Shown here piece after piece: positions 1-7,018 of a stretch of 11,649 nucleotides of DNA. This DNA comes from a virus. Lineage: Duplodnaviria > Heunggongvirae > Uroviricota > Caudoviricetes. The notes beneath the pieces were generated by a model. That model worked only from the letters and a program-made list of their open reading frames with translations. It had not been told where the DNA came from and ran no database searches. The stretch covers positions 1-11,649 of IMG/VR virus record IMGVR_UViG_2582581022_000020; one strand, given 5' to 3'. Numbering within the stretch: the first letter of the stretch is position 1; each line of letters begins with the position of its first letter. Made by a program: the position numbers and the translations under genes.

Positions 1-420
1 ATGACGGATTATCAGCCATACAGGAAAGGAACTGTGCTTGCCCCAACTGGACCATGCAATCATCTTCATGTGATTTGTAATGATCCTGTTTATTACCCCG
101 TTAACGATTGTTATTGTGTTTTAGTTGTTAATATTTCTAGTATCAAGGATGGTGTCCCCCACGATCCGTCTTGCGTCTTGAATTCTGGTGATCATCGCTT
201 TATCAAGCATCCAAGTTATGTTGTTTACGCTGAAGCTATAATTTGGCGAGTGGATAACATGGTTAGAAAGCTGCGATCGGGTGAGATTTCTGTTCATGAT
301 GATATGCCAGAAGCTACATTCAATAGAATTCTGGACGGTTTTGATATCTCTGATGAAGTTACGCCAAAGAACCTTAAATTTAAAAATAAATATTGCGTAT
401 CATCTATTGATGATGAGTAA
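1..420 (+). CDS. Hypothetical 139-aa protein, first gene of a plus-strand cassette opposite to the early-left operon; weak Kid/PemK/MazF-like pattern
   Basis: Complete ATG-to-TAA ORF, protein-like composition. Segment-wise resemblance to the Kid/PemK toxin fold, judged by eye only (RKGTVLAPTGP, CVLVVNISS, YVVYAEAIIWRVDNM, MPEATFNRILDGF). Confidence 0.45.
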   Translation: MTDYQPYRKGTVLAPTGPCNHLHVICNDPVYYPVNDCYCVLVVNISSIKDGVPHDPSCVLNSGDHRFIKHPSYVVYAEAIIWRVDNMVRKLRSGEISVHDDMPEATFNRILDGFDISDEVTPKNLKFKNKYCVSSIDDE

Positions 421-459
421 ACAACAGGAATTGTTTCGGTATAACTTCTGGAGTTTTCT

Positions 460-633
460 ATGGAAGATCAAAAAGCAACCAAGCCACAGGTTAAGTTCGA
501 CACAATGAAAGCATTCGTAGGTATGGGTGCTGCTGTTGAAGTTCTGATGAAGGCTGCTCCTAATGCGTTCACTCACGCTACTGTCTCTGGTAAAGAGCAG
601 CAGGGTAAGCTTCGTCGTCTCAAAGCAGCATGA
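460..633 (+). CDS. Small hypothetical protein, 57 aa (MEDQKATKPQVKFDT...KLRRLKAA), below the ORF-track length cutoff
   Basis: ATG at 460 preceded by GGAG (450-453) with a 6-nt spacer; TGA at 631-633; strong terminator 20 nt downstream. Confidence 0.4.
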   Translation: MEDQKATKPQVKFDTMKAFVGMGAAVEVLMKAAPNAFTHATVSGKEQQGKLRRLKAA

Positions 634-652
634 TCATAGCTGGTGCTTTTTG

Positions 653-678
653 AAAACCCGCCTTCAGGCGGGTTTTTT
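653..678. terminator. Bidirectional rho-independent terminator between convergent genes
   Basis: AAAACCCGCC-TTCA-GGCGGGTTTT stem-loop with a T-run on the plus strand and an A-run upstream (T-run on minus); lies between the plus-strand stop at 633 and the minus-strand stop at 681. Confidence 0.75.
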
Positions 679-680
679 CT

Positions 681-962
681 TTAGTGATTTTCTTTGCCCT
701 TCTGTTTGACTGTTCTGACCTGTTCCCACTCGATACGTCCTTCTTCTCGCCTTTTGTCTATGTATTCCGCAAGATCCTGAATATTGATGCAACGTTTTGC
801 TTTTTGTGATGTGCCGATGCGATATGTTGGAACGGGCAACTTACAAGCGTTTGCTTTTGCTTCTGCCGTGGCTGGACTCATACCAAAGTACTTTTGGCTA
901 ACTGCTGAGAGTTCAATGTTTGGGGTATTGAATTCAGCCATCAGTAAAAACAAGGTGTTCAT
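681..962 (-). CDS. PrtN/excisionase-family small DNA-binding protein; last gene of the leftward early operon
   Basis: N-terminus MNTLFLLMAEF and C-terminal DLAEYIDKRREEG fit the recalled PrtN-family pattern. ATG at 962 has a GGAGA RBS with ~5-6 nt spacing; the ORF track's 989 start is GTG without an RBS. Confidence 0.6.
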   Translation of the reverse strand: MNTLFLLMAEFNTPNIELSAVSQKYFGMSPATAEAKANACKLPVPTYRIGTSQKAKRCINIQDLAEYIDKRREEGRIEWEQVRTVKQKGKENH

Positions 963-998
963 AATTTTCTCCATCAAAACCGGCTGCACCCGGGAAAA

Positions 999-1571
999 TC
1001 ATAATTCTGTGCTGGTGGCAGGAATTAATTTCTGCCAGATAGCGGAAACATATTTTGCCTGATGACGGGCATCAGCCAGGGCGTTGTGCCGTTCGCCATC
1101 GAAAGGCATGTCCATTTTGGGGTCGAATCCGATGGAACGCCCAAGCGTAACGATCGTGCGTACATCGTGGTCATTCCAGTATGCCCACGGGCAGATTTGT
1201 CCTGCTCGCTCATAAGCTCCACGTAAAATTACGTTGTCGAAGGTGGCTCCGTTACCCCAGACTTTTAAATATTTCGTATTGTCTGCGTGCCGGTTAATGA
1301 AATGATTTAGTTCTGAGAGAGCATCGCTGATCGACAAAGTATCATCAATACAGATTGCAGCTCGTGCTTCAGGGCTTTGTTTCAACCACCACAGGATGGT
1401 ATCGCCGTCAGGTGTAGCTCCTTGCTCCATAGCACTTTCCAGGCTAACAACCGTATAGAATTCTTGTCCGATGTCTCCGGTTTCTGGAGTGAAGAACACC
1501 GCGCCAATGGAAACGATCGGTGCATCCTTATTTTTCCCCATCGTCTCAAGGTCGATCATTAAGTTATTCAT
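999..1571 (-). CDS. DnaQ-like DEDDh 3'-5' exonuclease (RNase H-like fold)
   Basis: Exo I motif MIDLETMG, Exo III motif with catalytic His (RHNALADARHQAKY); ATG shares a base with the upstream gene's TAA (TAATG coupling). Confidence 0.8.
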   Translation of the reverse strand: MNNLMIDLETMGKNKDAPIVSIGAVFFTPETGDIGQEFYTVVSLESAMEQGATPDGDTILWWLKQSPEARAAICIDDTLSISDALSELNHFINRHADNTKYLKVWGNGATFDNVILRGAYERAGQICPWAYWNDHDVRTIVTLGRSIGFDPKMDMPFDGERHNALADARHQAKYVSAIWQKLIPATSTEL

Positions 1572-1882
1572 TACTTCACCTCCTGCGTTTCTTTGCTGCT
1601 GTGAATTCGCCAGTTACCGACGCCTTCCCATTCAAACTGGCGGTTACTAATTCGCGTCCAGCCCCTGCCGAAAAGCAAATCCAGATACCAGTATTTTAAA
1701 GTTCTGATAATTGCTCTTACAGTTGGTTTGCATCCAGAAGTCTTTGATGCGCAAATAAAGCACCGAGTTATGCTCATGGCTTCTACAAAAGGCCAGATAA
1801 ACCAAACCCAGATGCAAAGAGCCACGAACAACATGAGCGCGATGTTAGCCACTAAGCCAGACCAGTACAGATAATTGCTCAT
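1571..1882 (-). CDS. Hypothetical small membrane protein (103 aa)
   Basis: Hydrophobic Trp-rich N-terminal segment (LVANIALMLFVALCIWVWFIWPFV) consistent with a transmembrane helix; ATGA overlap with the upstream gene. Confidence 0.55.
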   Translation of the reverse strand: MSNYLYWSGLVANIALMLFVALCIWVWFIWPFVEAMSITRCFICASKTSGCKPTVRAIIRTLKYWYLDLLFGRGWTRISNRQFEWEGVGNWRIHSSKETQEVK

Positions 1883-2262
1883 TGGTTGCCTCCACCTTGG
1901 CTCTGAAGCATGGCAGCGCGGCAGGCGTTCCAGCCATCAACATACCCAGCCATGATATATCGATTAAAACCCACATCTTTCTGTGCGCGTGCCAGATTCA
2001 TTTCCTCCGGCACGTGTACTGGCTGAGCTATATATAGCGGCTGAACATACCAACCCTTTGATAACCAACTGTCAGCAACGTTTTTACTCCGTGTTATTGC
2101 CGGAATACCTAAGCCATTGTCTGAATGCAGCCATGCCACCGGTTCTGCTTCCAGCGATGCCAGCGTAATCCGTGCAAGTTCCATTTGTTCACCACGGGTA
2201 AGCCCGTTTTCAAGCGGATTTTTAATGAATAATTCGATACGTTCTTTGGTAATAGAATTCAT
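1879..2262 (-). CDS. Hypothetical phage protein (127 aa)
   Basis: ORF with protein-like composition, translationally coupled on both sides (TAG..ATG upstream, ATGA downstream). Confidence 0.55.
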   Translation of the reverse strand: MNSITKERIELFIKNPLENGLTRGEQMELARITLASLEAEPVAWLHSDNGLGIPAITRSKNVADSWLSKGWYVQPLYIAQPVHVPEEMNLARAQKDVGFNRYIMAGYVDGWNACRAAMLQSQGGGNQ

Positions 2263-2263
2263 G

Positions 2264-2455
2264 CTATTTCACCTTAATCTCAACATTTCGCAGTTTTAGC
2301 TCCACTGGCAGGTCTGACTTTCCGGTTAAAGCTAATGCGAGATTTTCTGGAGTAATGAGAGCTGTTATTGTTTTCCCCATTGCCAGACGAATAATTATTC
2401 GTATTTCGCGATCGTCACATGCTCCCGGTCGAACAATTGATATTTGTCCGTCCAT
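2264..2455 (-). CDS. Hypothetical small protein (63 aa)
   Basis: ATG start 2 nt after the upstream gene's stop; fills the gap in a tightly packed operon. Confidence 0.45.
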   Translation of the reverse strand: MDGQISIVRPGACDDREIRIIIRLAMGKTITALITPENLALALTGKSDLPVELKLRNVEIKVK

Positions 2456-2456
2456 A

Positions 2457-3056
2457 TCACTCTCCTTTGATGCGAATGCCAGCGTCAGACATCATATGCA
2501 GATACTCACCTGCATCCTGAACCCATTGACCTCCAACCCCGTAATAGCGATGCGTAATGATGTCGATAGTTACTAACGGGTCTTGTTCGATTAACTGCCG
2601 CAGAAACTCTTCCAGGTCACCAGTGCAGTGCTTGATGACAGGAGTCTTCCCAGGATGGCGAACAACAAGAAACTGGTTTCCGTCTTCACGGACTTCGTTG
2701 CTTTCCAGTTTAGCAATACGCTTACTCCCATCCGAGATAACACCTTCGTAATACTCACGCTGCTCGTTGAGTTTTGATTTTGCCGACTCCAGTTGTTTTG
2801 TTAGTTCCGCAATACGGCAAACATCGTTGATACGCGTTTCCTCTAATGCGTTGATCTCATCCAACAATGCCAGCGCGATATCTGGCGTAGGTTTTGTCTG
2901 TAACTCTTCGATACGTTCAGCCAGCGCCGCGCACTTGGCCTCAGCTTCAGCAAATTTACGCACCAGGTACTCAGCGTTTGTTTCGTTCACTTTCAGATCT
3001 CGCGGTACACATTTCCCGCGAAGAAACCCTTCCATTTCGAAAACATTCATGCGCAT
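2457..3056 (-). CDS. Ea22-like coiled-coil early protein
   Basis: Central Glu/Leu/Ala-rich coiled-coil and C-terminal ITHRYYGVGGQWVQDAGEYLHMMSDAGIRIKG tail resemble lambdoid ead/Ea22-like proteins. Alternative ATG at 3050 overlaps the upstream TGA (ATGA). Confidence 0.6.
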   Translation of the reverse strand: MRMNVFEMEGFLRGKCVPRDLKVNETNAEYLVRKFAEAEAKCAALAERIEELQTKPTPDIALALLDEINALEETRINDVCRIAELTKQLESAKSKLNEQREYYEGVISDGSKRIAKLESNEVREDGNQFLVVRHPGKTPVIKHCTGDLEEFLRQLIEQDPLVTIDIITHRYYGVGGQWVQDAGEYLHMMSDAGIRIKGE

Positions 3057-3583
3057 TTGCGTAACCCCGATAACTCGTTAAAACGTTCCATAAACATCCC
3101 GTAGGCATGGCCTGGTGACAGTGGAATCACGTTGAACATCTCTGTTGCCGGGATACCTTCCAGTACAGGCCAGAAAGAACCATCATCAAGCCCGAGATCA
3201 CGGCGTTCGGTTGCCAGCATAATGAGATCGGCATATTTCACTGGCGTGCTCATAACAGGAGGTAACCCGTATTTCTCACGGATTACGGCGTCTATTTTTT
3301 CTTCCATCCGTTTATAGTCAGGAAGAAGGCGTTTCAGTGGAGCGGGAATATCCTGGCAATACGCTTCTGTTGCATCATGCATTAACGCTTCAAAAGCAAA
3401 TTCCTGCGGCACCAGCTGGCTGCAAAGCACCGCATGCTGGGCGACGCTGTAGAAGTGCGAAAGATGACCGGCAAAGCGACAGATATTTGAAAGGGAAACC
3501 GCGATATCGTTAATATCGATGTCGTCTTTATTTATCCTGTCATAATAAAAATGCTTCCCGGAAAAAGTTTTAATAAATGACAT
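3047..3583 (-). CDS. yfdR: HD-domain phosphohydrolase, YfdR-like 5'-deoxynucleotidase (178 aa)
   Basis: HD motif (His...ALMHDATEAY); ATG at 3583 with GGAG 6 nt upstream. The ORF-track start at 3628 is TTG without an RBS. Length and family match recalled CPS-53 YfdR. Confidence 0.75.
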   Translation of the reverse strand: MSFIKTFSGKHFYYDRINKDDIDINDIAVSLSNICRFAGHLSHFYSVAQHAVLCSQLVPQEFAFEALMHDATEAYCQDIPAPLKRLLPDYKRMEEKIDAVIREKYGLPPVMSTPVKYADLIMLATERRDLGLDDGSFWPVLEGIPATEMFNVIPLSPGHAYGMFMERFNELSGLRKCA

Positions 3584-3676
3584 TTTGTTCTCCACGTATA
3601 TGCGCTGCACCGCGCTGAATTCTGGCAAAAAGAATCCCTCACCATCCGGCGATTATTGAGTAAATTACGTTTCCAT

Positions 3677-3698
3677 AAATGCCCCCGCAGGGGCATTT
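3677..3698. other. Perfect 9-bp stem / 4-nt loop hairpin (AAATGCCCC-CGCA-GGGGCATTT) in the yfdQ-yfdR intergenic region
   Basis: Perfect inverted repeat 13 nt past the yfdQ-like stop; no U-tract on either strand, so not a canonical intrinsic terminator. Confidence 0.5.
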
Positions 3699-3710
3699 GC
3701 AGTAATGAAA

Positions 3711-4535
3711 TCAGGCGGTGAAAGTACCAATAAAGGTTTCTACTTTGCTGTCCTTGAATTTCTCAACAAGCAGATCACGAAATTCGTTAGCCATTTCTTC
3801 CTGCACCGCCTCCAGCTGAATAATGCGCAGAACCAGTACAGGACGATCGCCAGTGATAATACTGAGGCGTAATTTAAACGGACGTTCTTTCAGACCTTCA
3901 AACGGAACGCATTTAAATTCAAATGCCACTGGCATAATGTCTTTGGTCTTCGCTTCGACAGACTCCATCAGGGAGCGTTTGCCGCTGAAGTCATTATCTT
4001 CAAAATCAGAGGTCTGGTTTGCTTCAATCGTGATTTTACGGACAGCCGCAGCCGCTTTTGTTGCCTGAATAGCGTCACCATTAGCATCAAAGCCCACAAG
4101 ATAGTCGGCCCAGTCTTCAATCCATTCTGCTAGTGACTTCTGGGAGTTACGCTCGCCGTTAACAGACAACAGAGCAGAGAACGGTGCTGTCTTTTTCAGT
4201 TTGAGTGTGGCGGTGTTATCTGCGTGACCTGGTTCATCAATAGTACCCAGGTTAAGCACACTGACTGCACGCATATTATCAGCATCGATAAAGCAGCGGG
4301 TGCCTTCATCTGCAAGATCTTTAGAATAACGGGTAAAGTCATCGATGCTGGCAGTGGAAAGCGCACCACGGAAACGGAAGCGATTTAAATTAAATTTTTC
4401 CAGATCATGAATGCGGAAATGCTCAGGCAATGCCACAGCATCGGCACCAATCTTACTGATAATTTCATTAACACCCTGAGCAGAAATAAGGGCATGGATT
4501 TGATTAATTGCGGTTGCGTCTAAGTTCTGAGACAT
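3711..4535 (-). CDS. yfdQ: YfdQ-like DUF2303-family protein (274 aa)
   Basis: ATG with GAGGA RBS; length and position immediately upstream of the YfdR-like gene match the recalled CPS-53 yfdQ-yfdR synteny. Confidence 0.7.
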
Positions 4536-4600
4536 AATAAGTCCTCACTATATAAAGATATTCAGTGATGAGATAAATAATCAGTTAATTAAAAACGATA

Positions 4601-4963
4601 TTAACGACCTGCTGCGCGGAGTTTTCCGTCAGGTTCACCGGCAAGAGTCAGTAACTGTCCCTGGTCTTCCTGCAGAATAGTCAGGCGACCACCGCGATTG
4701 ACATACATCGGCGTTTCGGTGGTGTCTTCTTCGGAAATTTTCCCGCGGTTAGTCGGGCGAACATATGAGAGTTTGTGTTTGATTTTCACACGGTTCTCAT
4801 CAAATGGTTCGATTTCCAGGTTGAGTGAGACCTTACCTTTGGTTTTCGTGTTCATCACACCGGAAGCGACTTCACTGAGAACTGCGCCGATTTTGGTTTC
4901 AAATACGCCGCCGTCCAGCTCCCCGATAAATGCCTGCACATCAGTACTGCGTTCGCTAGCCAT
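4601..4963 (-). CDS. Hypothetical early protein (120 aa, MASERSTDVQAFIGELDGG...); possibly yfdP-like
   Basis: ATG at 4963 preceded by GAGGAG at -13..-8. The ORF track's 226-aa version is an upstream extension through GC-rich non-coding sequence. Confidence 0.6.
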   Translation of the reverse strand: MASERSTDVQAFIGELDGGVFETKIGAVLSEVASGVMNTKTKGKVSLNLEIEPFDENRVKIKHKLSYVRPTNRGKISEEDTTETPMYVNRGGRLTILQEDQGQLLTLAGEPDGKLRAAGR

Positions 4964-5011
4964 TTTGCTGCTCCTCATCATATCGACCCTGCAAGGTCGG
5001 TTAGTTTCTCC

Positions 5012-5290
5012 ACAAAACAGAGAAGAACACCTGCGGTGACTGCCGCCCGGATGGATTGGGTTATGAGCCCGTCGTCCGGTGATGCTCTTCTCTGTTTTGT
5101 AAAAAGGACGGTACCAGCCGGAAGCAAGGGTACAAACTGGTACCTCCAGGACTACACACAGCATAAAGTTGTGGTGCCGGGTGCCTCCCGGTGCCTGGCG
5201 AAGGTTGCACACCAGACGGGTGGGTATCCACAGAAGGTCGACTGTCAGCCTCAACCTTAACCCGCGTGCGCTGAGCCGCATTCACCACAA
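5012..5290. other. GC-rich, highly structured non-coding element; candidate ncRNA or cis-regulatory RNA, strand undetermined
   Basis: No credible ORF. Perfect 15-bp inverted repeat ACAAAACAGAGAAGA (5012-5026) / TCTTCTCTGTTTTGT (5086-5100) enclosing 59 bp with nested hairpins; 8-bp GGTACCAG / CTGGTACC stem (5110-5117 / 5137-5144); three direct GGTGCC(T) repeats (5173-5196); CCGGG-N5-CCCGG hairpin. Confidence 0.35.
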
Positions 5291-5400
5291 CGCTAAGGAT
5301 TCTCTTTGGTTGAAAATACTTAGCTGTTATGTGCCTGTCTTTTCACCACTTCAGGCTCGGTGGTATCCTTTTAAGCCCGTATACATAAAAGGAAAATCAA

Positions 5401-5646
5401 ATGACTTTTGATGAAAAAGAACTTGATAATGCAATTAATAAAATCATCGTAACGTCGCTCTTTTCCTGTCTCAGCGACACTCAGCAGAAACAGTTCTACG
5501 AATCGGCTTTCAACATGATCGAGCGTTGTTGTTTCTGCGATGCCGATGAGTTACCTGAAAAAATCAGGAAACAGTTGGCTGATGCTCTTCGAGTGCGACT
5601 TTCTGACCAATTTTCTGAAATGTGCTCTCGGAATTTGGACAAATAG
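5401..5646 (+). CDS. Hypothetical 81-aa protein, rightward gene between the leftward early operon and cI
   Basis: ATG at 5401 with AAGGA RBS and 7-nt spacer; helical, charged composition. Confidence 0.5.
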   Translation: MTFDEKELDNAINKIIVTSLFSCLSDTQQKQFYESAFNMIERCCFCDADELPEKIRKQLADALRVRLSDQFSEMCSRNLDK

Positions 5647-5839
5647 AAAAAGGCCATTTCCATTCAGGGTCTGATGGAAAGACTTCAGCCTGTTCTAAAG
5701 CACGGCGTAAAGAGAATACAACTCCAGCCATAATCTGATGTTTCCCATTGGCCCAGCTATCGCCGCTCTGATCTACAGGGGCGGCTATGTCGTATGACCA
5801 AACGACTTCACAGTTATTGTTTAAAATCTGGACTTTCAT
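5564..5839 (-). CDS. Questionable 91-aa ORF, first ORF downstream of the pL-like promoter
   Basis: ATG with GGAGG but a 12-nt spacer. The 3' 83 nt overlap the convergent plus-strand gene, and a weak hairpin plus U-run (5641-5680) lies inside it. Not Arg-rich like N. Confidence 0.3.
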   Translation of the reverse strand: MKVQILNNNCEVVWSYDIAAPVDQSGDSWANGKHQIMAGVVFSLRRALEQAEVFPSDPEWKWPFSICPNSESTFQKIGQKVALEEHQPTVS

Positions 5840-5955
5840 TTTGATCTTTAACCTCCAGATACGGGCGTTTAATTGCCCCGCCGAACAGCTCTTTTCCGCA
5901 ATAGCTGCAATGTCTTTCGCGAATCAGCCTGCGCATTCACCACAACTCTAAAAAC

Positions 5956-6011
5956 AAATGTAGGATATCCAACATGTAAGTGTCAAGAGTTTATGTTGGT
6001 TATCCTACATA
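5956..6011 (-). promoter_or_regulatory. pL-like leftward promoter with two OL-type operators
   Basis: On the minus strand, -35 TTGACA (plus coords 5981-5986), 18-nt spacer, -10 TACATT (5957-5962). 18-bp operators ATGTAGGATATCCAACAT (5958-5975) and ATGTTGGTTATCCTACAT (5993-6010). Confidence 0.55.
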
Positions 6012-6024
6012 AAAAGATAGGCTC

Positions 6025-6052
6025 ATAAAAAAACCGGGGATACCCGGTTTTG
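6025..6052 (-). terminator. Intrinsic terminator just downstream of cI, with bidirectional potential
   Basis: Minus strand AACCGGG-UAUC-CCCGGUU followed by a 7-U run, about 20 nt past the cI stop. Confidence 0.65.
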
Positions 6053-6071
6053 CGATAGTGAGGAAGATGTG

Positions 6072-6725
6072 TCAAAAATCCATTATTACTTGTTTGACAA
6101 GACCAACTATTCTGCAGTTCTCACCGCATTCAATAGTTTTATAGTTAGGATTTAGTGGGACGAGATACCTGTTCGGCCAGTCCTCAACAAATTTTTTGAG
6201 TGTCGCTTCTTGCCCACCATTGATATGGGCAACAACGATTTTTCCGTTAATACACTCTGTATCAATAATATCTGGCTCTACGATAACGATAGAACCTTCT
6301 GGTATCGATGGTGAGCCGAGGGGATTGGTCATTGAATCACCACGGACCCGTAGTGCAAATGCCATTTCTGATACAAGGGCGGTAGTATAAACCCACTCTT
6401 CAGCATCTTCTTTCCTGACACCAGGCTCCGTCATTGTCCATGAACCCGCCTGAACCCACGAGATGAGGGGGACTTTTTTAACTGCGAATATTTCAGGTTT
6501 TAGATTTATCTTTGGTTCAGGCGAGCCTTTTCCGCTAACAAGCCACAGAGGATCGCATTTAAGTGCGTTGGCTAGGGCTTGAAGGTTGGCTCCATTTGGT
6601 TGGTAGTCGTCCTTTTCCCATCCAGTAACCGTGACACGGTTCACACCAGTCAAATCAGCCAGTGCTTGTTGTGTCAGGTTCAGTTCTTTTCGCCTTTGGC
6701 GAATACGATCACTCATGTTCATCAT
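6072..6725 (-). CDS. cI: Lambda-cI-type prophage repressor (HTH plus LexA-like S24 autopeptidase domain)
   Basis: N-terminal HTH (IRQRRKELNLTQQALADLTGV); Ala-Gly cleavage context VQAGSW; catalytic Ser in GDSMTNPLG and Lys in ATLKKF; the C-terminal domain (GDSMT...PLNPNY...VGLV) is collinear with lambda cI. Confidence 0.9.
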   Translation of the reverse strand: MMNMSDRIRQRRKELNLTQQALADLTGVNRVTVTGWEKDDYQPNGANLQALANALKCDPLWLVSGKGSPEPKINLKPEIFAVKKVPLISWVQAGSWTMTEPGVRKEDAEEWVYTTALVSEMAFALRVRGDSMTNPLGSPSIPEGSIVIVEPDIIDTECINGKIVVAHINGGQEATLKKFVEDWPNRYLVPLNPNYKTIECGENCRIVGLVKQVIMDF

Positions 6726-6815
6726 GTAGGCAATCCTACCACATGCCCATGTAGGATTCTTGACATTGGCGTGTTGGATATCCTACATTTCTGCTTAACG
6801 TAATTCAACGGGAGA
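6724..6815. promoter_or_regulatory. OR-type operator cluster (three sites) with pR and divergent pRM-like arrangement
   Basis: Operators at 6724-6741, 6749-6766 and 6771-6788. pR -35 TTGACA (6760-6765), 18-nt spacer, -10 TACATT (6784-6789), then GGGAGA RBS and cro ATG at 6821. The operator at 6724-6741 overlaps the cI start codon. Confidence 0.6.
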
Positions 6816-6820
6816 CAGAA

Positions 6821-7018
6821 ATGCGGAAATCCGACGTGATTAATTATTTCGGCGGAGTTTGTAAAACCGCCGAAGCCCTAGGTATTAAGCATCCGTCTGT
6901 TTCAGAGTGGCCTGAGATTATTCCTGAAGGCCGAGCGTACCAGTTAGAAAAAATTACTAACGGGAAACTGAAAGTTGACGTGTCTTTATATCAAAAGACT
7001 AACAGTGCTGCGGCATAA
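6821..7018 (+). CDS. cro: Cro-like (YdaS-family) HTH regulator
   Basis: 65-aa protein immediately downstream of pR/OR and divergent from cI; HTH-like segment GGVCKTAEALGIKHPSVSEW. Confidence 0.8.
   Translation: MRKSDVINYFGGVCKTAEALGIKHPSVSEWPEIIPEGRAYQLEKITNGKLKVDVSLYQKTNSAAA

Follow-up and report, generated by a model that had tools for sequence, protein, structure and literature searches.

What is carried by about 440 bp of GC-rich, repeat-packed DNA that lies between the early operon of a phage and its promoter pL? The question is raised by positions 4964-5400 of the window, which is the whole stretch of 11,649 nucleotides of viral DNA analyzed here (Duplodnaviria; Heunggongvirae; Uroviricota; Caudoviricetes; IMG/VR record IMGVR_UViG_2582581022_000020, positions 1 to 11,649) and is 99% identical to Shigella phage SfV (SfV 24553-25103). 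The preliminary description, made from the letters alone, took this region for a candidate undescribed RNA element. The analysis points instead, with a probability of about 0.6, to a divergent member of the STnc100/PasD prophage small RNA (sRNA) family on the minus strand from 5291 to 5101. Its function is most likely that of an Hfq-dependent base-pairing sRNA whose terminator would double as a barrier to early-left transcription.

STnc100, PasD and EcOnc27 are known in the literature as Hfq-binding prophage sRNAs, and a common ancestor has been proposed for PasD and STnc100. In a scan of Rfam with permissive filters, which had been suggested as a check along with the preliminary description, the sole meaningful match was to STnc100 (RF02076): the minus strand from 5313 to 5098 aligned with positions 1-206 of the 206 in the model (35.6 bits, E = 7.7e-5), so that a known family was matched from end to end, at a score below its gathering threshold. 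Array members at other loci score 48-92 bits on the same Rfam model. A covariance model (R1) built from 43 diverse family members, taken from one genome per species and excluding all SfV/ST64B-type sequences, gave a single full-length match on the minus strand of the window at 5296-5167 (69 bits, E ~5e-18). For comparison, R1 gave 73.7 bits for the Qin prophage of Escherichia coli K-12, 73.6 for Cronobacter phage phiES15, 51.5 for the e14/ymfH locus, 28.3 for PasD1 and 24 for mEp460, and found no match in the early region of HK022. The window sequence has each of the 30 columns that are invariant in the family alignment, and also the closing helix around several hairpins and the GGUGAAU and CACCGGGAGGCACCCGGCACC motifs. 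Because of the Rfam STnc100 alignment and the independent match to R1, the element is not of a new kind, and its characterization as undescribed no longer holds. The parts of the predicted RNA are as follows.

5291-5168, minus strand: structured core, a multi-helix domain of about 125 nt
5291-5283 with 5176-5168, minus strand: closing helix P1, followed by a GAAU junction
5279-5264, minus strand: hairpin P1a, with a bulged A
5258-5234, minus strand: hairpin P3
5217-5193, minus strand: hairpin P4
5191-5177, minus strand: hairpin P5, CCGGG-AGGCA-CCCGG
5258-5252 (AAGGUUG) with the P4 loop at 5207-5201 (CAACCUU), minus strand: pseudoknot
5149-5167, minus strand: single-stranded linker UUUAUGCUGUGUGUAGUCC, a candidate seed
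5101-5147 (hairpin 5147-5106), minus strand: intrinsic terminator, GGAGGUACCAG-loop-CUGGUACCGUCC followed by UUUUU

The minimum free energy fold of the core is the family architecture (z = -2.06), and the fold of the whole RNA from 5315 to 5095 has a z score of only -1.62, a modest value that makes the thermodynamics of a single sequence insufficient on its own to establish the element. A covariation analysis, also suggested at the outset, found compensatory changes in the stems. RNAalifold applied to a plain MAFFT alignment predicts P1, P1a and P5 (CCNGG-AGGCA-CCNGG); in this alignment, which has 24 sequences, paired cells make up 97.4% and nine of the 19 pairs have changed on both sides, with none of 500 shuffles reaching the covariation score and slid controls at 48% or less. 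Among 114 distinct sequences aligned to the model, 95.2% of cells are paired, 14 of the 19 pairs have changed on both sides, and none of 500 shuffles matches the alignment on any of five measures, including two that are robust to relatedness, with the caveat that this alignment was fitted to the model. Thus three helices covary strongly, in agreement with the view that the region is structured RNA, not coding sequence. One U.G pair never varies among the 113 sequences with letters at that place, and G.U variants are frequent; together these place the RNA on the minus strand, to which the leftward early transcript also belongs.

P4 and the pseudoknot were analyzed with anchored scripts because MAFFT aligned them inconsistently across subfamilies. 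P4 is represented by 28 distinct stems with several pair types at each position. The pseudoknot, formed by the P4 loop with the segment after P1a, exists in at least eight different sequence versions in the family, among them the following.

SfV: AAGGUUG / CAACCUU
phiES15: AAGGCUG / CAGCCUU
P1-like phages: UGGUUAU / AUAACCA
Qin: CAGUUAA / UUAACUG
classic STnc100: AUCAGCR / YGCUGRU, CUGGUGN / NCACCGG, CUGGCU / AGCCAG and AAUGACU / GGUCAUU

With composition-preserving shuffles of the loop, the per-class p values of the pseudoknot range from 0.002 to about 0.1, and their combination by Fisher's method, by hand, gives about 3e-6. A first test with a wide window was weakly discriminating (a mean of 6.6 bp for cognate and 4.7 bp for non-cognate partners), and a version with a restricted window performed better. 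Because the 5' partner of the pseudoknot overlaps P3, the pseudoknot and P3 are alternatives to each other. The structure line of Rfam RF02076 has no pseudoknot.

The linker and terminator downstream of the core complete the three-part layout of the predicted sRNA. The motif UGCUGUGUGURR of the linker is kept in front of unrelated terminator stems in SfV, e14, ST64B, phiES15 and Qin/CP4-like loci, and in CP4/Qin-like loci it occupies the position of DicF. The usual signature of an sRNA is a conserved seed combined with a freely varying terminator. The linker at 5149-5167 also has the same position as the seed of PasD1, which was mapped by ligating and sequencing interacting RNAs (RIL-seq). Linker and terminator hairpin together fold with -21 kcal/mol (z = -2.67), the terminator of the window aligns to that of the STnc100 model, and it is predicted to form the 3' end of an RNA of about 190 nt (5291 to 5101). 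In position, and partly in sequence, the terminator is DicF-like. Rfam DicF has sub-threshold matches to the e14 homologue (28.5 bits) and to the CP4-like version (38-39 bits; 39.1 at locus L094). Membership of the SfV terminator module in DicF itself was considered and rejected on the absence of an Rfam match at E <= 10.

The repeats from which the structure was first suspected can be assigned to these helices. The GC content is 0.55 at 4951-5250 versus 0.41-0.45 in the flanks, and every repeat feature that had been listed for the segment was found in place. The GGTACCAG/CTGGTACC stem lies at 5110-5117 and 5137-5144; the GGTGCC(T) repeats and the CCGGG-N5-CCCGG hairpin (5177-5196) are the minus-strand core helices P5 and P1; and the long inverted repeat has arms of 25 nt (5012-5036 and 5076-5100) that are 84% complementary and contain the 15-bp perfect part.

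Could the same DNA encode a protein, either a product like YmfH or an N-terminal extension of the downstream gene orf32? The statement of the preliminary description that there is no convincing open reading frame (ORF) holds only in part: an ORF of 226 aa (4601-5281, minus) does run in frame from inside the region into orf32, and its reading frame is not conserved among relatives. Besides this open frame, a coding role could appeal to the RefSeq annotation of homologues, which is either a coding sequence (ymfH, 103 aa, over the e14 homologue of K-12) or a frameshifted pseudogene, and to the phenotype of a ymfH clone, which triggers the toxin of retron-Sen2. However, the frame is broken by indels of 1 nt and 20 nt in an alignment of SfV, e14, ST64B and mEp460_4F5, both of them in ST64B; the ymfH ORF of e14 is open only because 1 nt is missing from the P5 loop and a second indel is present; and the sequence of that ORF is spread over three frames in SfV, the SfV-type copy being called frameshifted by the Prokaryotic Genome Annotation Pipeline. 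Searches of Pfam and PHROG with the 75-aa ORF and the 106-aa extension found no matches, orf32 has its own Shine-Dalgarno sequence and an ATG at 4963, and the substitutions preserve the RNA helices. A protein product is therefore extremely improbable, and the region 4964-5400 is non-coding. In K-12, ymfH (locus L251, 2582-2893) overlies a decaying copy of the RNA (L251, 2574-2702; 51.5 bits with R1).

Directly after the U-tract of the terminator, and before orf32/yfdP, the long inverted repeat forms a second structure.

5009-5103, minus strand: large hairpin with a 23-bp basal stem and a three-way junction

As RNA, the long inverted repeat folds with -49.3 kcal/mol (z = -7.3), which none of 200 shuffles equals, and a G-C pair has been replaced by A-U in compensation between SfV and ST64B. 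This hairpin module is downstream of the core in SfV and ST64B, and upstream of the core in P1-like phages (loci L004 and L006, about 2450-2500). The interior of the hairpin at 5036-5076 aligns with the D and anticodon arms of tRNA-fMet, with 14 identical bases (CGGGCUCAUAACCC; p ~0.004 by shuffling), and an inner hairpin, GGG-CUCAUAA-CCC (5070-5058), matches the tRNA-fMet anticodon arm. Judged from this likeness, the hairpin may hold a remnant or a mimic of the tRNA. ARAGORN finds no tRNA or tmRNA in the window or in the SfV-like, ST64B and phiES15 loci, in keeping with the earlier remark that no tRNA cloverleaf is present. The counterpart of the hairpin module in 118970_sal3 contains two T-arm-like hairpins.

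The likeness to tRNA invites the explanation that the whole element is a remnant that has decayed from a phage array of tRNA and sRNA genes and hitchhikes in the mosaic early-left region, having no present function in SfV. Along with the tRNA-fMet fragment in the hairpin and the T-arm-like hairpins of the related module in 118970_sal3, this explanation is consistent with the copy in e14, which is visibly decaying (its P5 loop has a deletion and one stem a mismatch; 51.5 bits), and with mEp460, which retains P1 only and has had its interior replaced (24 bits). It is very unlikely for SfV, however: every helix is intact in the SfV-type copy, the changes between lineages are compensatory, and the SfV type is 95-99% conserved. 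Of 5,426 complete E. coli genomes, 1,814 match it over 80% or more of the region, and about half (2,785) contain DNA similar to the region.

Where the element is found bears on whether the core acts on its own transcript or as a separate RNA. In a distant blastn comparison, positions ~5305-5147 are conserved in ST64B, 118970_sal3, Cronobacter phage phiES15 and P1-like plasmid prophages, and the element invariably shares its strand with the early genes that follow it. When viral contigs were searched for the 5' motif, more than 120 loci were added, most of them between DicF (76.7 bits with Rfam) and dicB in Qin-like prophages, and the family occurs in many genera of Enterobacterales, in prophages and plasmids. 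The spacer between dicF and dicB in K-12 Qin (locus L130, 2443-2585) is itself a complete core, closed by a helix of 19-21 bp (73.7 bits with R1). Among 79 non-redundant family members, -10-type boxes (TANNNT; 45 occurrences) peak at -17, -15 and -14 relative to GGUGAAU, just before P1, which indicates that transcription in the family starts at P1. A Pantoea plasmid and other Enterobacterales have head-to-tail arrays of five to seven cores at the places listed next; no ORFs separate the cores, and some of them are just 4 nt apart.

L290, 948-1994: array of cores
L310, 6399-7839: array of cores
L280, 3114-4491: array of cores
L321, 3717-5512: array of cores

Cores are interleaved with tRNA genes, a tRNA following 5-9 nt after a core in L321, and tRNA genes are next to the core also in P1-like phages and at L117. 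In mEp460 (locus L008, 2350-2490), P1 and the GGUGAAUGCG start are kept and the interior is replaced by unrelated sequence, part of it homologous to the window's leader near pL (5900-5861); this variant looks like a recombination scar inside the element.

The genes and promoters around the element in the window are arranged as follows.

6760-6789, plus strand: promoter pR, TTGACA-18-TACATT
6072-6725, minus strand: gene for a cI-like repressor
5986-5957, minus strand: promoter pL, TTGACA-18-TACATT, from a promoter scan (10 of 12 matches) and mirrored at pR
5958-5975 and 5993-6010 (pL) and 6771-6788 (pR): three copies of a palindromic operator of 17-18 bp (ATGTAGGATATCCAACAT type), overlapping both promoters
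5564-5839, minus strand: orf33, between pL and the structured region
5313-5365, minus strand: conserved leader module, ACCACCGAGCCUGAAGUGGUGAAAAGACAGGCACAUAAC..., from alignments and sequence listings
5299-5304, minus strand: weak candidate for a -10 box, GAGAAT, 7 nt before P1, lacking a good -35 and below the threshold of the scan; a -10 box stands at this place in many members of the family
4961-5001, minus strand: small hairpin CGACC-UUGCAG-GGUCG, then the Shine-Dalgarno sequence GAGGAG (4976-4971) and the ATG of orf32 (4963-4961)
4963-4601, minus strand: orf32/yfdP, matching phrog_204 and annotated YfdP, with yfdQ next leftward

Leftward from pL, orf33 is followed by the region and then by orf32/yfdP and yfdQ, so its location between early operon and pL had been given correctly. 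Together, the regions of the two promoters make up a 40-nt inverted repeat. The only match of orf33 is to a PHROG family of unknown function (phrog_3195). The mosaic block common to e14, mEp460_4F5, phiES15 and 118970_sal3 begins at the leader module (5313-5365), which has no significant structure (z = -0.13; the region to 5372 was also examined), and to regard 5313-5372 as nut-like would be speculation. Convergent ORFs at 5401-5646 (plus) and 5564-5839 (minus) overlap by 83 nt and match phrog_3311 and phrog_3195, both of unknown function; the one on the plus strand would lie antisense to the transcript from pL, a short way upstream of the RNA, and ORFs on opposite strands occupy the same position in e14 and mEp460. 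R1 has a weak match in the window (14.9 bits, E 0.019) at 3600-3711 (minus), in the short spacer between yfdQ and the next gene, which is probably noise; the same weak match recurs in SfV (L001, 4701-4812) and mEp460 (L008, 3938-4049). A strong GC-rich hairpin flanked by runs of A and T (AAAACCCGCCTTCAGGCGGGTTTTTT) at 596-685 (plus), with weak Rfam matches to families that include a terminator (rnk leader and RNAI), is most likely a bidirectional intrinsic terminator.

Of the known systems, STnc100 (RF02076; EcOnc27 and sRNA103 in enterohemorrhagic E. coli, EHEC) is similar to the window in core, linker and terminator, which align end to end. They have in common the closing helix, the GGUGAAU junction, the hairpin with a bulged A, P4, the CCNGGAGGCACCNGG hairpin and the position of the pseudoknot, and STnc100 also resides in enterobacterial prophages. 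The differences are a P1a of GCGGC/GC-A-CGC in the SfV type versus CCCCC/GG-A-GGGG in STnc100, which is fully compensated; a pseudoknot of another sequence; and the location, since the SfV copy is in the early-left pL operon and has no clear promoter of its own, whereas STnc100 is downstream of stx2 or Q in the late region. STnc100 has been reported as Hfq-associated and EcOnc27 as its EHEC counterpart downstream of stx2, both of them Hfq-bound in EHEC. PasD1 and PasD2 of the enteropathogenic E. coli strain E2348/69 (also EcOnc13) share the three-part layout, the start of the RNA at P1, a seed just 5' of the terminator, and a pseudoknot at the same place (AAUGAUC/GAUCAUU). PasD1 has been described as an abundant, Northern-validated, Hfq-dependent RNA of 173 nt; in the E2348/69 sequence it starts exactly at P1, and its RIL-seq seed, UGUGAG, is in the linker just before the terminator. 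PasD differs from the SfV copy by a reduced core in which P1a is shortened and P5 is lost (28.3 bits with R1), by the seed UGUGAG, and by a strong promoter of its own in the late region beside the lysis genes.

The arrangement of DicF in Qin is parallel to that of SfV: a pL-type promoter controlled by a repressor, small ORFs, an sRNA with an intrinsic terminator, a long helix after the U-tract, and downstream genes. The RNA predicted for SfV (about 190 nt) has the size of the long form of DicF, and the dicF-dicB spacer belongs to the same core family as SfV. In contrast, the core precedes the DicF-like module in SfV and follows DicF in Qin, P1 has 9 bp in SfV versus 21 bp in Qin, and the SfV terminator module has no Rfam DicF match and another 5' single-stranded motif. 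RNase III has been reported to cut about 19 nt past the DicF terminator to give a 72-nt form, and the end of this form is located in the 21-bp P1 of the Qin core, on the 5' strand of the helix. The 23-bp stem of SfV is in the equivalent place, directly after the U-tract, and by this precedent the large hairpin is likely to be a site of processing by RNase III in read-through transcripts.

If processing were the chief activity, the element would be a punctuation module whose long helices and tRNA-like core are substrates of RNase III, RNase E or RNase P, the cuts would divide the polycistronic early-left transcript into pieces of separate stability and set the level of the downstream mRNA, and any activity in trans would be secondary. 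The reported cut inside the Qin P1 and the position of the SfV stem straight after the U-tract fit this proposal, as do the cores that are 5-9 nt from tRNA genes or in arrays needing processing, and the stacking of P1 on P5 with no intervening nucleotide, which on a reading of the structure resembles a minihelix of acceptor stem and T-arm. However, the P1 of the SfV type, at 9-10 bp, is too short for RNase III alone, the P5 loop has 5 nt and is not a 7-nt T-loop, ARAGORN detects no tRNA in the window, and the invariant loops and the conserved linker are left unexplained; the proposal is given a low probability.

A cis-acting leader is similarly unlikely. In this case the core would sense a ligand, a protein or RNA polymerase and decide between a stop at 5147-5101 and read-through to orf32 and onward to int, either as a riboswitch-like attenuator or as an antiterminator similar to put. 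Within the pL operon, a terminator follows the core directly; nothing resembling an N protein is evident, orf33 not being arginine-rich by a reading of its translation; the conserved junctions and loops and the alternative pairing of a pseudoknot partner in P3 amount to the complexity of a riboswitch; and the Qin-type and P1-type cores are 30-45 nt upstream of a start codon (dicB or tciA) with no terminator between. HK022, a lambdoid phage, likewise lacks an N protein and has a structured RNA in its early-left leader, namely put (putL and putR), reported to be about 70 nt with two stems. However, homology to put was rejected by a motif search and local alignment, which found no shared motifs and no significant alignment between the HK022 early region and the window. 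Another difference from put is that the family core often has its own terminator 33-106 nt downstream (34 of 79 representatives, within a limit of 120 nt), and up to 45 of the 79 have a -10 box before P1, so that core and terminator recur as a stand-alone unit and termination right after the core is common. The arrays of five to seven copies have no ORFs between them, and no conserved alternative pairing between core and terminator was found. Of the two functions that had been considered at the outset, a free-standing sRNA is thus the closest, and antitermination is unlikely, given the recurrent core with its own terminator and the lack of similarity to put.

The preferred function, that of an Hfq-dependent sRNA with a terminator that doubles as a barrier, builds on the family membership, fold, strand, terminator, linker conservation and position in the pL operon described above. 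By analogy with PasD1 and DicF, the RNA would be made from the repressor-controlled pL transcript after induction, with a possible low-level start at the weak promoter GAGAAT (5304-5299) just upstream of the first helix. The transcript would stop at its own terminator to give an RNA of about 190 nt, RNase E may trim it in the linker to a 3' RNA of DicF size (about 60 nt), Hfq would be bound through the terminator hairpin and U-tail, and mRNAs of the host or phage would be paired through the conserved linker UGCUGUGUGUAG. The same terminator, of tL type, would limit transcription into orf32 and onward to xis and int, and in transcripts that read through, the long hairpin would serve as a probable RNase III site that parts the sRNA from the downstream mRNA.

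Several observations weigh against this function or against the family assignment on which it depends. The Rfam STnc100 score (35.6 bits) is less than the curated gathering score of 47. Expression and Hfq binding have been shown for distant family members only. Neither the scan nor a reading of the sequence finds a convincing promoter that belongs to the SfV copy itself (the best has 8 of 12 matches and a poor -35), which implies that the RNA may not be made in the lysogen. The Rfam DicF model (RF00039, 48 bits needed) has no match to the SfV module at 5060-5200 (141 nt) at E <= 10. In RNAduplex against ftsZ (-60 to +30), a test that proved uninformative, not even genuine DicF stood apart from shuffles. 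The conservation of the core, including loops and pseudoknot, exceeds the needs of a simple scaffold for an sRNA, and base-pairing may not be the main activity.

That last point leads to a tentative interpretation, of low probability, in which the core is not a mere scaffold for base-pairing but an autonomous, tRNA-like, pseudoknotted RNA domain. Cores in arrays, interleaved with tRNA genes, are presumably excised by processing enzymes of the tRNA/rRNA type, and the invariant loops (U-N-N-G-C, the bulged A and GGAGGCA) suggest that a specific factor is bound, such as the ribosome, RNA polymerase, a nuclease or a defense protein. Overexpression of "ymfH" has been reported to trigger the retron-Sen2 toxin RcaT (bioRxiv 10.1101/2020.06.22.160242). 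Since ymfH looks like a spurious ORF over the RNA, this effect may be that of the RNA, although to attribute the triggering of retron-Sen2 to RNA rather than to YmfH protein is speculation. If the core is autonomous in this sense, the trigger of retron-Sen2 would be an RNA effect and the family would be placed in the conflicts between phages and defense systems.

The outcome for the locus is mostly deflationary, in that the element belongs to a catalogued sRNA family with experimentally validated distant members. For the family, the Rfam threshold misses a whole clade, which includes two loci of K-12, the ymfH "gene" and the dicF-dicB spacer. The covarying pseudoknot and the association with tRNA arrays are absent from the current Rfam model and from the literature consulted on the family; together with the complexity of the fold, the invariant loops and the tRNA neighborhood, they suggest that the conserved domain has a function of its own. 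With the P1 helix of the Qin core, the RNase III cut that has been reported downstream of DicF can be explained in concrete terms, and the phenotypes ascribed to ymfH are worth re-examining as effects of RNA.

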